From Eledone cirrhosa (Eukaryota), in contig CAXHJY010000884.1 of the NCBI GenBank assembly GCA_964016885.1, positions 1 to 50,891 on the forward strand: a stretch of DNA of 50,891 nucleotides. Direction: 5' to 3'. The notes beneath the pieces were generated by a model. The model saw only the letters and a list, made by a program, of their open reading frames with translations. It was not told the DNA's origin and did no database searches. Position numbers and translations under genes: made by a program. Below, piece after piece: positions 475 to 45,394 of this stretch (positions within the stretch are counted from its first letter, which is position 1; each line of letters opens with the position of its first letter).

Positions 475-536
475 TATTTTATTATACATATTTCAAGGAC
501 ACCACGTTAAATTATGGGCTTTCATCAGACAAAATA
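475..536 (-). ncRNA. Minimal type I hammerhead ribozyme motif (Penelope-like pLTR remnant)
   Basis: Minus strand reads TATTTTGT-CTGATGA-AAGCCCA..TGGTGTCCTT-GAAA-TATGTA-TA-ATAAAATA. Stem I is 8 bp, the core is intact, stem II is imperfect, stem III is short and quasi-palindromic, and the cleavage triplet is AUA. Confidence 0.72.
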
Positions 537-799
537 CAATATAGATCAGTTTTATAAATAAATATTGACATACCCTTAAAAAATGCAACCATTACTGTTG
601 GAAGCTCATATATATATGCAGAAAGTTCAGTACATATGTATATATAAGTTCACAGCATCTTTTTACATCTATTTTTGCATGGGTTGGATGGGTTCTTTTC
701 ACTAAAGCCCCCTCCATGTGGTAGTATTCCTTTGTCATCTCAAAATGCTGGGGTTCACCATTTTGAGATACACCCGGCCATTTATTTTCATGTTCCTAT

Positions 800-2696
800 T
801 TATGTGTGTGTGCGTACATGCACACACACACACACACACACACACACACACACATATATATATATATATATATATATATATATATATATATATATATATA
901 CATATATATATATACATATACATATATATATATACATATACATATATATATACATATATATATATATACATATATATATACATATATATATATATACATA
1001 TATATATATACATATATATATATACATATACATATATACATATATATATATACATATACATATATATATACATATATATATATATACATATATATATACA
1101 TATATATATATATACATATATATATACATATATATATATATATACATATATATATACATATATATATATACATATATATATATATATATATATATATATA
1201 TACATATATATATATACATATACATATATATATACATATATATATATATATACATATATATATACATATATATATATATATACATATATATATACATATA
1301 TATATATTACATATATATATATATACATATATTATATATATATACATATATATATACATATATATATATATATACATATATATATATATACATATATATA
1401 TATATATATACATATATATATATATACATATATATATATATATATATACATATATACATATATATACATATATATTATATATACATAATATATATACATA
1501 TATATATATATATATATATATATATATACACATATATATATATATATACATATATATACATATATATACATATATATATATATATATATATATACACATA
1601 TATATATATATATAACATATATATACATATATATACATATATATATATATATATATATATACACATATATATATATATATATATATATATACACATATAT
1701 ATATATATATATATATATATACATATATATATATATATATATACATATATATATTATATATATATATATATACACATATATATATATATATATATATATA
1801 TATATATATATACACACATATATATATATATATATATATATGTATATATATATATATATACATATATATACATATATATATATATACATATATATATATA
1901 TATACATATATATATATATATACATATATATATATATATATATACATATATATATACATATATATATATATATAATACATATATACATATATATATATAC
2001 ATATATATATATATATATATATACATACATATATATATATATATACATACATATATATATATATATACATATATATATATATATACATATATATATATAT
2101 ATATATACATATATACATATATATATATACATATATATATATATATATATATACATATATACATATATATATATATATATATATATATATATATATATAT
2201 ATATATATATATATACATATATATATATATATATATATATATATATATATATATATATATGTGTATATATATATATATATATATATATATGTGTATATAT
2301 ATATATATATATATATATATATATGTGTATATATATATATATGTATATATATATATATGTATATATATATATATATATATATGTGTATATATATATATAT
2401 ATATATATATATATATATACACATATATATATATATATATATATATATGTGTATATATATATATATATGTGTATATATATATATATATATATATATATAT
2501 ATATATGTGTATATATATATATATATGTGTATATATATATATATATATATATATGTATATATATATATATATATATATATATATGTATATATATGTATAT
2601 ATATATATATATATATATATATATATATATATATATATATATATATATATATATATATATATATTATATATATATATATATATGTATATATATGTG
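800..2696. repeat. Giant (TA)n microsatellite with CA interruptions (to ~2220) then TG interruptions
   Basis: Directly visible; begins as (TG)n/(CA)n at ~803-852. Confidence 0.97.
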
Positions 2697-3250
2697 TGAA
2701 ACATGAAACTTGAAGCTCCTCAAAGGGCAATCACGAAAAAGATAGATGGCATGTCAGACCTTGACTACTGGGGTCGATTGGAAAACCTGAAACTTTACTC
2801 ACTCCAACGTCGCCGTGAGCGTTATATTATCTGCATGATGTGGAAAATGTTCCATCATCACTGCCCAAATGATGTTGGCATCGCCTTCAAGATACACCCA
2901 AGGCTTGGGCCCCGTGCTATCCGTCCCATTCAAAAATCTAAATCGCAACTCATAACAACAATACGGCACAATTATTTCACCTCAATCGGCCCTGCTCTCT
3001 TCAACATCACACCAGGACACGTCAAAACAGAAACTGACCACACAAAATTCAAGAAGTCTTTGGACAAATTCCTCCAAGTAATCCCGGACAAACCACCCAC
3101 ACCCGGATATGTCTCCGCAAACAGTAATTCTCTTCTCGAATGGGCCATGGTGCCCAAATCCTGAATTGAAAGACTTCGCCAGGTGGTGCTATTAAGTTAG
3201 ACATGGCCTGGGCCAATACTGGCCAAAACATTTCAAAGTTATTCAAAGTT
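2697..3250 (+). mobile_element. 5'-truncated CR1-group LINE: ORF2 C-terminus, 3' UTR and tail
   Basis: ORF 2703-3164 [46 protein letters not shown]...FKKSLDKFL matches the post-RT C-terminal pattern of CR1-type ORF2. The 3' UTR has a TGGCC..GGCCA stem-loop and ends in tandem TTCAAAGTTA x2. Confidence 0.88.
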
Positions 3251-5374
3251 ATATGTATATATATATATATATGTATATATATGTATATATGTATATATAT
3301 GTATATATATATATATGTATATATATATATATATATGTATATATATGTATATATGTATATATATGTATATATATGTATATATGTATATATATATATATAT
3401 ATATGTATATATATGTATATATATGTATATATATATATATGTATATATATATATATATGTATATATATATATATTATATTATATATATATATATATGTAT
3501 ATATATATATATATGTATATATATATATATATGTATATATATATATATGTATATATATATATATATGTTATATATATATATATGTATATATATATATATG
3601 TATATATATATATATGTATATATATATATATATGTATATATATATATATATATATGTATATATATATATATATATGTATATATATATATATATATATGTA
3701 TATATATATATATATATGTATATATATATATATATATGTATATATATATATATGTATATATATATATATATATGTATATATATATATATGTATATATATA
3801 TATATATATGTATATATATATATATGTATATATATATATATATATATATATATATATATATATATATATGTATATATATATATATGTATATATATATATA
3901 TATATATATATATATATATATATATATATATATATATATATGTATATATATATATATATATATATGTATATATATATATATATATATATATATGTATATA
4001 TATATATATATATATATATATATATATATATATATGTATATATATATATATATATATATATATATATATATATATATATATATGTATATATGTATATATA
4101 TGTATATATATATATATATATATATATATAATATATATATATATATGTATATATATATATATATATATATATATATATATATATGTTATATATATATATA
4201 TGTATATATATATATATATGTATGTATATATATATATATATATATATATATATATATGTATATATATATATATATGTATATATATATATATATATATATG
4301 TATATATATATATATATATATATATGTATATATATATATATGTATATATATATATATATATATATATATATATGTGTGTATATATATATATATATATATA
4401 TGTGTGTATATATATATATATATATATATGTATATATATATATATATATATATATGTATATATATATATATATATATATATATATATATATATATATGTA
4501 TATATATATATATATATATATATATATATATATATATATATATATATATATATATATATATATATATATATATATATATATATATATATATATATATATG
4601 TATATATATATATATATATATATATATGTATATATATATATATATATATATATAGTTATATAAATATATATATATATATATATATATATATATATATATA
4701 TATATATATATACGTATATATATATATATATATGTATATATTGTTATACTTTGGGAGGGTCATGTTGCCAATAAGAAACACACGCACCAGTTGCTTTCAC
4801 TTCAATTTAATTTATTATATATTTATAAATTTACAAATTTATAAATTTCTGGTTGGTTTGGTTGGTTCCACACCAGATAGTTGTTTATATATATATATAT
4901 ATATATATATATATATATATATATAATGTATATATATATATATATATATATATATATAATGTATATATATATATATATAATGTATATATAATGTATATAT
5001 ATATAATGTATATATATATAATGTATATATATATATGTATATATATATATATATATGTATATATATATGTATATATATATATATGTATATATATATATAT
5101 ATATGTATATATATATGTATATATATATATATATATATATATATGTATATATATATATATATATATATATGTATATATATATATATATATGTATATATAT
5201 ATGTATATATATGTATATATATGTATATATATATATATATATGTATATATATATATATATATGTATATATATATATATATATGTATATATATATATATAT
5301 ATATATGTATATATATATATATATATGTATATATATATATATATATATATATATATATATATATATACATATAT
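3251..5374. repeat. (TA)n microsatellite with TG interruptions, broken by a short unique island at 4741-4885
   Basis: Directly visible. Confidence 0.97.
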
Positions 5375-5518
5375 GTATGTTCATGCACACAAATATATAC
5401 ATGTGTTCATGCACACAAATATATACATGTGTTCATGCACACAAATATATACATGTGTTCATGCACACAAATATATACATGTGTTCATGCACACAAATAT
5501 ATACATGTGTTCATGCAC
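5375..5518. repeat. 26-bp minisatellite (TGTTCATGCACACAAATATATACATG) x~5.5
   Basis: Near-perfect tandem copies. Confidence 0.95.
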
Positions 5519-43711: not shown

Positions 43712-43895
43712 ATTATGTAATAAACAACACAAAATAATTATTCCATTACCCAAGGTTTCAGGAAGTTAGACGATTCTAATAGAAACGTCTGTTTCGTTCA
43801 TCAGATGAAATATCTTCATCCTTGGGTAATGGAATAATTATATTGTGTTGTTTATTACATAATTAAATAGCTCTGTACTATACATAGAGCACTCT
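43712..43895 (-). mobile_element. Penelope-like pLTR derivative with 44-bp inverted arms
   Basis: Arms 43712-43755 / 43820-43863 (1 mismatch) enclose the 5' part of a hammerhead; adjacent to (TA)n. Confidence 0.68.
43740..43811 (-). ncRNA. Type I hammerhead ribozyme motif
   Basis: Minus strand ATTTCAT-CTGATGA-[ACGAAACAGACGTTTCT ATT AGAATCGTCTAACTTCCT]-GAAA-CC-TTG-GG-TA-ATGGAAT; stems I-III form, GUA triplet. Confidence 0.78.
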
Positions 43896-44687
43896 TCTTT
43901 GCTTTACCTTTTCTACGGAAATAGTTAACATATATTTTATATATATTTTCAGAGAATGGTTGTGGTTGTGTGCATGGGTGAGTGGGTGTGTGTATGTGTG
44001 TATGTGTTTCGTTACTTATGTGGTGATGGGTAAGAATAACTGAGGTATTATAGCGGTGCGGGAAGAATTGTGTTTGTGTATGTGTGTATGTGCATGTTCG
44101 TGTATGTGTGTGTATATATGTACGAGTGTACAGACAAGTGGTTCCCAAACGTTTTCCCCTTTACGATGCACTTTACAAGAAGTAAAAATATCTGGGTGCA
44201 CTTAATGCCTAAATTCATAAATTTATTCAAAAGTAGTATTTATACATATTAACATAGCATAAAGTAGAAAAATATAAAACAAAATACATTAAAATTATTT
44301 GTACTTCCTTCTTTATTCAATAAGTGGACCTGAGCTATCAATGTGAAACATCATGTTCTTGGTGTTTTTTAGAAATATTTTCATTCTTAGTTGAGTTGAT
44401 TCTTACTTTGACAGTTATATATCAAGTTTATTACGAATTTCAATTTGTATTTTTGACATTTTGAAATAGAATCTTGCTCTTTGGGGGCACACCTAATTAC
44501 ATCTCGCGGCTCACAAATGTATCGTGATACATTTGTTTGGGTTTGGGTGTGGGTTTGGGACCCTCTGGTGTAAACATACAGACCAGAGGTATAAATAAGA
44601 AGATTGACAGATACATAGAAATATAGGTAGCTGAAAAGGCACACACAGACATTATATATATATATATATATATACATATATATATAT

Positions 44688-44865
44688 AACGAAGGAGGTG
44701 TGGTAAGGAACCAGATGGACCATAACGCACCGGAGTACTCAATACTTAGGGTAATAGAGTGGGTAATAGGAAAATGTTTGACCCCGACGGCAGAGCTCAA
44801 GCCGTTTCGACGGCTATTTCTGGACTCAGCTTGAGCTCTGCCGTCGGAGTCAAACATTTTCCTAT
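44688..44865 (-). mobile_element. Penelope-like pLTR derivative with 37-bp fold-back (family P3)
   Basis: Arms 44766-44802 / 44829-44865 (1 mismatch); minus-strand AGCCGTC-GAAA-CGGC-TT; TTGAGTACT at 44742-44734; (TA)n on both sides. Confidence 0.65.
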
Positions 44866-45204
44866 ATACATATATATATATATATATACACACACACACA
44901 CATACATATATAGATAGACAGACAAACAGACAGAGAGATAGTCAGACAGATATACATGTGCTTCACATGACGTCATATAAAGTCATCAATATTACAAGCC
45001 TGTTATCAGCAAAGTGGTCAATAACAAATTCGAAGCAAATTAAATTATTTCGAGCTATGAAAACGTCAATGTGAAAAGTGACATAAACACTGAGAATTTT
45101 ATGTGATGCTTTATTGATTATGTATTTATTATATACAAATATGTATGTATGTGTATATATATATATATATATATATATATATATATATATATATATATAT
45201 ATAT

Positions 45205-45394
45205 AACGAAGGAAATGTGGTAAGGAACCAGGTGAACCATAACGCACCAAAGTACTCAATATTTAGGGTAGTAGAGTGGGTAATAGGAACAAGTAAGACC
45301 CCGACGGCTGAGCTCAAGCCGTTTCGACGGCTAATTCCAGAATTAGCCGTCGAAACGGCTTGAGCTCAGCCGTCGGGGTCTTACTTGTTCCTAT
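45205..45394 (-). mobile_element. Penelope-like pLTR derivative with perfect 55-bp fold-back (family P3)
   Basis: Arms 45283-45337 / 45340-45394 with no mismatch; diverged homologue of 44688-44865; (TA)n on both sides. Confidence 0.68.

Follow-up and report, generated by a model that had tools for sequence, protein, structure and literature searches.

Truncated Penelope-like element insertions in Eledone cirrhosa with a twin bulged hairpin beside their two alternative 3' ends

INTRODUCTION

The Hydra clade of Penelope-like elements (PLEs), which carry a C-terminal endonuclease (EN), was described by Craig et al. (2021, PMC8557442). That paper gives as its marks DKT in place of DKG, a CxCX5C linker, and CxxC and CxH motifs, together with a canonical hammerhead ribozyme in the pseudo-long terminal repeat (pLTR), insertion into (TA)n, a pLTR–open reading frame (ORF)–pLTR architecture, an inverted 5'-truncated copy and a tail on one side only. 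We found the same features in three families of PLEs (A, D and E) represented by small hammerhead-bearing islands in a contig of Eledone cirrhosa (CAXHJY010000884.1, analysed over its whole length of 50,891 nt and hereafter called the window; the assembly comprises 3.0 Gb in 1,796 contigs). Units in E. cirrhosa are 3.5–4 kb with long 3' untranslated regions (UTRs), whereas those of the Hydra clade are generally <3 kb, and tails are ~80–90 nt rather than 30–40 (PMC8557442). An octopus family, Hydra-1_Obim, with a hammerhead and a (TA)n target is already in the supplement of that paper; the window-type hammerheads differ from the one listed for it, and the window families are therefore other families.

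Dispersed single hammerhead motifs derived from truncated PLEs have also been reported (Cervera and de la Pena 2014, PMC4209133). These share with the window motifs a palindromic stem III, opposite-strand pairs 100–700 bp apart and, as in our family E, a U3-A8 core, although stem III of family E is longer; that paper mentions neither molluscs nor the Hydra clade. Ribozyme-bearing inverted stubs (PMC4209133, PMC8557442, PMC3846280) and head-to-head insertions with one tail (PMC3846280, PMC8557442) are published PLE patterns. For a Poseidon element of Anolis, PAc (Frangieh et al. 2024, PMC11167929), the PLE protein was reported to cut and extend both strands of AT-rich DNA in vitro and to start at two sites inside the RNA, between which the tail lies, with the hammerhead upstream of these sites, an arrangement that probably recurs in the elements described here.

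The islands themselves are ordinary PLE debris, and the added finding is a twin hairpin at the two insertion ends. We consider it probable that the islands are 5'-truncated PLE insertions, three families of which are tied to Hydra-type ORFs, and that each of their two alternative 3' ends is followed within a few bases by a bulged hairpin, a conserved structure likely to position the reverse transcriptase (RT). No description of such a hairpin was found in the literature searched (subscription papers, Repbase entries and the supplementary figures of PMC11167929 and PMC8557442 lay outside the search), and the words 'hairpin' and 'stem-loop' are absent from the main text of PMC8557442.

RESULTS AND DISCUSSION

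Two alternative 3' ends, each followed by a bulged hairpin

We compared window families A to F (positions are listed below) with loci fetched from the genome, which carry L numbers. The 3' ends of family E were bimodal, with 46 inner ends and 81 with a tail (n = 127), and head-to-head pairs consisted of one tailed and one tailless arm in all 40 pairs of family E, in 10/11 pairs of D, 3/3 of A and 15/21 of F. Tails belonging to unrelated families have in common RCTC, a stem-loop of 3–6 bp, a 2-nt bulge and GAGYRC (hairpin 1), and full elements of families A, D and E have a second copy (hairpin 2) just past the outer end, ahead of the ORF start. Where a locus has two pLTRs, the 3' copy ended 2–5 nt before hairpin 1 (L347, L376) or hairpin 2 (L346, L351, L372) in five of seven cases; of the remaining two, L348 reaches the contig end and the alignment of L386 stops early.

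When the motif was anchored by sequence only, 167 of 223 anchors in distinct contexts paired at a 2-nt bulge, compared with 4–23 at other bulges. Counted by cluster, 30/67 paired at the 2-nt bulge versus at most 7 at others, and Markov controls gave 3–4 of 33–44 anchors. Among unbiased loci (L255–L344), 15/24 clusters paired versus at most one at other bulges, and 60/72 cells were paired compared with 42.9 in shuffled alignments (0/5,000). The hairpin sequence pattern had 137,623 matches in the genome and its reversed pattern 3,650, a count that reflects copy number and is not independent proof of structure.

We also examined 27 related loci in metagenome contigs of other animals, 10 of which keep the ORF start: the motif lay 28–43 nt upstream of the start in 10/10 and a second copy 97–106 nt upstream in 8/10, and 24/25 hairpin matches were on the sense strand. 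In the supplement text of PMC8557442 the motif could be recognized by eye in Hydra-2_Amil, Hydra-1_Ajap (twice) and Hydra-2_Ajap, with a variant in Hydra-1_Crog. In a separate comparison, which is indicative only, the motif occurred within 230 nt after 10/45 Hydra versus 0/17 non-Hydra hammerheads. Judging from sequence and position, the hairpins are putative signals that likely fix where reverse transcription begins, at the two sites that give rise to the PLE 'tail'.

Families A, D and E lead into Hydra-type ORFs

A family A copy (L004) has an EN ORF upstream, and a search with that ORF gave 25 loci, in 23 of which the family A end lies 0.7–1.1 kb downstream of the EN-region match on the same strand. 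Loci picked by the 3' UTRs of families E and D had the window-type end in 20/20 cases each, and contained Hydra-type ORF pieces in 10 and 6 cases, respectively. The pLTR–ORF–pLTR architecture was found in the extended loci L376 (family D), L372 (E) and L386 (A), with L376 running from an inverted truncated copy through a pLTR, an ORF of 2.2 kb and a UTR of 1.5 kb to a second pLTR.

In all three families a single ORF encoding an RT with a GIY-YIG-type EN at the C terminus lies upstream of the pLTR, and the proteins are 38–41% identical to relatives of 600–720 aa. Pfam and PDB searches with these ORFs returned no naming match, and the domains were therefore read from motifs. DKT replaces DKG in A (L145), D (L376) and E (L372, L388, L389), and the alignment and ORFs contain the CxCX5C linker and, near the EN end, CxxC and CxH. 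The N-terminal motif in D and E, and in relatives P0001, P0002 and P0004, is RWR where RWK is expected for the Hydra clade (PMC8557442). Named Hydra RT reference proteins were compared by eye only, from the supplement text of the same paper. On the evidence of these predicted proteins, families A, D and E are traced to the 3' ends of ORF-bearing Hydra-type PLEs.

An uninterrupted 725-residue frame in a D-related Hydra-type copy (L379, minus strand, 239–2413 on that strand) suggests fairly recent activity. ORFs of families A and D (L138, L132, L376) have asparagine-rich inserts ahead of the EN linker, and similar inserts have been described for bdelloid Penelope (PMC3846280). Fragments of non-Hydra PLE ORFs with hammerheads of their own were also encountered, all on the minus strand (L045, 2470–3137; L048, 2500–3318; L003). 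The ORFs beside family B in L045 and L048 were rejected as B's own, since they lie on the other strand with their own hammerheads.

The islands of the window

An earlier note on this DNA, made from its letters alone, had reported five complete type I hammerheads, four loci with only the 3' half of the motif and six palindromes, all in ORF-less islands in or beside (TA)n. Each of these elements was recovered. A type I hammerhead descriptor scan of the whole window returned the five hammerheads, with cores at −528, −6888, +6974, +43353 and −43804 (0.04–0.05 matches per run in Markov controls, 2 x 100 runs), and masked self-BLAST the palindromes (6789–7073, 23264–23362, 28808–28895, 43722–43853, 44769–44862 and 45286–45391). 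The half-motif loci lie at 23.2, 28.8, 44.7 and 45.2 kb. (TA)n or TA/GA tracts adjoin 8/8 islands, and 6/8 have an inverted arm. No stop-to-stop frame of at least 120 aa lies inside the islands except for one of 184 aa that crosses the 44.7-kb island, and tblastn with PLE proteins gave no match anywhere in the window. The features are as follows.

432–607, minus strand: stub of family D, a Hydra-type PLE, comprising its 3' end as a single arm with no tail that ends in (TA)n (96% to the pLTR of full element L376; ORF link)
475–536, minus strand: complete type I hammerhead of family D, with stem II 3 nt shorter than in relatives (a deletion; descriptor)
6781–6925, minus strand: family A inverted arm without tail, with a complete hammerhead at 6827–6896 (descriptor, self-BLAST)
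6926–7160, plus strand: family A arm with a complete hammerhead at 6966–7035 and a tail of ~85 nt (93% to L386; ORF link in 23/25 loci)
7081–7107, plus strand: family A tail hairpin 1, with a 5-bp inner stem and a 2-nt bulge, directly 3' of the inner end
23181–23307, minus strand: family F arm with tail and hammerhead 3' half, the tail hairpin decayed in this copy (92% to L380)
23302–23366, plus strand: family F inverted arm without tail, starting inside the first core strand, with the second core strand mutated
28593–28715, plus strand: further stub, overlooked in the earlier note, whose version of the tail hairpin has a long stem and lies at ~28628–28680 (hairpin read by eye)
28748–28851, minus strand: family F-related arm with tail and hammerhead 3' half (80% to L380)
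28852–28902, plus strand: family F-related inverted arm without tail (self-BLAST palindrome)
32002–32131, plus strand: stub of family G whose minimal hammerhead is degenerate and has its core at 32045 (descriptor, relatives)
43242–43596, plus strand: family B stub with a complete hammerhead at 43347–43428 (descriptor)
43704–43819, minus strand: family C arm without tail, with a complete hammerhead at 43740–43811 (descriptor)
43820–43930, plus strand: short arm of family C that carries the tail and faces the left arm head to head (95% to L204)
43870–43892, plus strand: family C tail hairpin 1, with a G-C outer pair
44688–44826, minus strand: family E arm whose tail holds hairpin 1 (44735–44760) and which has the 3' half of a hammerhead of the U3-A8 type (90% to L372)
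44829–44865, plus strand: family E inverted arm without tail, with an internal deletion (self-BLAST palindrome)
45206–45337, minus strand: family E arm with tail, the hammerhead 3' half truncated in the stem II loop (97% to L372)
45340–45394, plus strand: family E inverted arm without tail (55/55 positions identical to its partner arm)

The two family A arms are identical at 131/133 positions. The degenerate hammerhead of family G is a sixth one that the earlier note had overlooked. The stub at 28593–28715 had eight matches among the fetched loci, and their upstream part holds a hammerhead 3' half. Beside the family A insertion lies another overlooked stub (6625–6760), in which an inverted hammerhead 3' half is joined to a tail with a decayed hairpin and which has related copies in L184 and L225. 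A repeat end at 28430–28555, with 13 matches among the fetched loci, stops in (TA)n ~18 nt past a CTGATGA core and is without a second core strand.

The half motifs have complete parents: the parent of family E has a complete hammerhead with the U3-A8 variant core, and that of family F a canonical core. Compared with these parents, the half motifs are best classed as truncations, and the islands as a whole as the extremely 5'-truncated 3' ends of six PLE families, with no separate class of ribozyme elements apparent from their sequences. A canonical CUGANGA parent had also been considered for family E, and was rejected after a search for it gave 55 heterogeneous matches and the actual parent proved to have the U3-A8 core.

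Hammerhead motifs

All five complete motifs of the window have the CUGANGA core, GAAA, NUH and three helices with stem I open. Monomer folding energy did not favour the hammerhead fold in any of the five (z −0.46 to +0.50), and so the case rests on core conservation and covariation instead of energy. In 19 representatives of the A/D type, 98.9% of cells were paired, with 35 double changes compared with 13.0 after shuffling (0/500); slid controls were far lower than observed, and 5/6 stem II pairs were altered on both sides. The rows were picked by a core and stem I pattern, and the covariation is therefore informative for stems II and III only. By core and covariation, the window motifs are confirmed as type I hammerheads, with putative self-cleavage.

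In searches against Rfam models, a kind of check that the earlier note had suggested, the best 150 of 527 matches for the window included no hammerhead family, nor did the 13 matches for 43200–43950, and none reached gathering score in the two full elements examined; the matches obtained were solely microsatellite-driven microRNA (miRNA) models. Failure of both Rfam and monomer folding is to be expected where minimal PLE motifs act as dimers. The dependence of such motifs on a dimer or a protein (PMC4209133, PMC11167929) also predicts that most single stubs are poor cleavers, and the hammerhead would be a passenger of the pLTR. The wider proposals of the same note, that several distinct PLE families had left the islands, that they target TA microsatellites and that insertions carry an inverted truncated copy, held up in the ORF links of families A, D and E, in the flank enrichment given below, and in the upstream inverted copy of L376 and the pairs with a one-sided tail. 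Extension upstream to RT and GIY-YIG ORFs succeeded for these three families and not for B or F. The outcomes that the note had named as contrary to its reading, namely single-copy islands, loss of the core or of covariation, and a link to DNA transposons, were not observed.

A proposed mechanism and its alternatives

Starting from the observed sequences, ORF links, end positions, arm asymmetry and covariation, we infer the following protein binding, priming and order of steps. The RT-endonuclease would nick (TA)n on both strands and bind the two hairpins, which the transcript carries in the 5' UTR of its next tandem unit; complementary DNA (cDNA) would begin at a UA 2–8 nt upstream of each hairpin. 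Priming at hairpin 2 would give the tailed arm, its tail containing hairpin 1, and priming of the opposite strand at hairpin 1 would give the tailless arm. Both arms would be copied from the same RNA, with synthesis halted prematurely in or near the hammerhead at a point that depends on the family, and would be joined head to head. A broader version, which we advance tentatively and rate at a little short of an even chance, is that a clade-wide hairpin pair, kept across distant marine animals, serves Hydra-clade PLEs as RT docking signals, with one RT dimer priming both nicked (TA)n strands from one RNA.

Several observations weigh against these proposals. No contiguous ORF was found for family B (0/12 loci, 0/4 extended loci) or family F (0/7 extended loci, where nearby ORFs belong to D-like elements), and family C had an RT fragment between its arms at just one locus (L196/L205); the putative Hydra assignment of B, C and F leans on the tail hairpin alone. 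Both arms of family F had a tail in 6/21 pairs. With looser anchors the pairing signal was weak (162/342 cells versus 136.9 shuffled, 1/2,000), hairpin 2 has only 1–3 inner pairs in several families, and the window tail hairpins fold weakly by themselves (z +0.39 to −2.73). The 10 metagenome loci represent only about six families, and inspection by eye of Hydra-1_Obim, as given in the PMC8557442 supplement, did not show the motif at its ends. Finally, Poseidon PAc belongs to a different clade and starts in one AC-rich stem loop inside the ORF (PMC11167929), unlike the elements described here, where two separate bulged hairpins lie in the 5' UTR, one immediately 3' of each end.

The mirror arm might instead form by fold-back, in which cDNA primed at the outer site snaps back and copies itself, and an EN cut beside hairpin 1, then a DNA signal, resolves the product. 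Self-priming has been proposed (PMC3846280), as has EN-mediated resolution of the tail (PMC8557442), and D. virilis EN cleavage needed the tail (PMC11167929). In family E, subfamily letters were common to both arms in 29/38 pairs compared with 9.0 after shuffling (maximum 17); this concordance points to one template per insertion, and fold-back would fit it, and centres with little or no spacer, equally well. However, the motif and its distance from the end are shared by hairpin 2, which is absent from the copied DNA, so that a single RNA-level rule covers both ends; the omission of hairpin 2 from outer-ended insertions favours a role on the RNA template. G-T wobbles also exceeded A-C mismatches on the sense strand (9 versus 3 among cluster representatives, a weak difference). 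On balance we regard fold-back as unlikely. One of the few family E insertions with discordant subfamily letters between arms (L014, ~1450–1560) suggests two templates or later conversion.

Priming at two RNA hairpins can also be set against a role of the twin motif in transcription (as a promoter) or in translation from the 5' UTR, with ends nearby only since RT primes at the nearest UA runs. The two copies do stand at fixed distances (~35 and ~100 nt) from the ORF start, and the sequence ahead of each is AT-rich, so that TA microhomology blurs the exact end. We nevertheless find this improbable, given that in five elements, which come from different hosts, one or the other copy is preceded by an end at 2–5 nt, that family E ends form two narrow peaks, that compensatory stems indicate a folded single strand, and that family B, for which no ORF was found, retains one copy at the unit junction.

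The earlier note had pictured the islands as solo or non-autonomous hairpin elements. This can be read as a case of self-contained ribozyme units (MITE-like, after miniature inverted-repeat transposable elements, or retrozyme-like) amplified in fixed form. Many of the 40 best matches to the 45.2-kb island have the window's own centre, and 5' ends are strongly clustered: in family E, 93/127 fall in a 30-nt window, beginning 30–59 nt past the core start in the stem II loop, and in F, 49/74 fall in 20 nt, beginning within 10 nt of the core start. Family D 5' ends are scattered more widely upstream. Such family-specific clustering could come from a discrete RNA end or an RT stop; no pile-up was seen at the ribozyme cut site in family E, with 12/127 ends in two 10-nt bins around it. 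When centre-biased searches were excluded by using a tail-only query, 18 distinct centres were found among 19 family E pairs, and the commonest centre occurred on two subfamily backgrounds (7 and 4 copies). Because centres vary between copies, the hairpin shape appears to arise at insertion and not as an amplified unit, and the fixed palindromic master for family E that the island-query matches had suggested was dropped. Moreover, families A, D and E run on into ORFs, which refutes fixed units as a general account; we hold that account to be highly improbable. Short master RNAs may exist for family E or F.

Fixed units may still apply to family B. This family consists of ~500-bp ORF-less head-to-tail units with a type I hammerhead, as in non-LTR retrozymes (bioRxiv 10.64898/2026.07.22.740005), with two hammerhead-bearing units in L382 and partial tandems in most of 12 loci; retrozymes form long arrays, whereas family B copies are partial tandems with inverted arms. 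From its sequence, only family B looks non-autonomous and retrozyme-like, and it is presumably mobilised by a PLE.

MITEs of DNA transposons, motifs that arose by chance and fold-back artefacts of the assembly can all be dismissed as vanishingly improbable: the long palindromes lie in TA-rich DNA and some weakly match miRNA hairpin models, but hammerhead cores are far above chance with covarying stem II, upstream RT/EN ORFs refute these explanations, the arms are asymmetric with a one-sided tail, and families B and C are also present in independent short-read contigs with varied joints. A DNA transposon with fixed terminal inverted repeats was likewise rejected on the variable centres, the one-sided tail and the RT link.

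Abundance and genomic setting

First-look searches of the assembly gave 2,210 candidates for family A, 2,641 for B, 2,000 for C, 1,121 for D, 1,988 for E, 931 for F and 1,029 for G, where candidates are search matches and not copy numbers. We also scanned 60 evenly spaced 10-kb samples (600 kb in all), which contained 42 descriptor matches; nine with a TTG core, six of them from one satellite, were set aside, leaving 33 with a CTGA core compared with 1–3 in five controls. This amounts to ~1 hammerhead per 18 kb, or, by extrapolation, ~1.6 x 10^5 intact motifs genome-wide, and the window is typical of its genome in hammerhead density. (TA)5 lay within 250 nt downstream of 30/33 sampled motifs compared with 17.5% of random positions, and (TA)4 within 30 nt of 107/127 family E ends. 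PLE ends of different families were frequently stacked in a single (TA)n tract.

Other repeats in the window

A 5.9-kb tandem array at 32659–38514 has a GT-rich unit of 60–66 bp and a strong strand skew (GC skew ~0.88). A ~200-bp family resembling short interspersed nuclear elements is dispersed and locally repeated (9922–10125, 12267–14039, 15815–15908, 39175–39392 and 41368–41689) and very abundant, with 1,347 matches among the fetched loci. Minisatellites occupy 19636–20616 (period 10, 98 copies) and 40455–40716 (period 30, 9 copies).

Implications for Penelope-like elements

How PLEs come to form their tail and inverted ends is described as an open question in both PMC8557442 and PMC11167929. 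In the twin hairpin there is a candidate RT recognition element that is specific, can be mutated and predicts the two start sites within a few bases, which makes the question testable with purified protein. The motif would also be a practical marker for PLEs of this kind. If the docking reading is true, it would explain the tail, the head-to-head inversion and the trans-mobilisation of retrozyme-like units in one step, and for PLE-based insertion the signal of ~25 nt would amount to a minimal cis-element that is portable.

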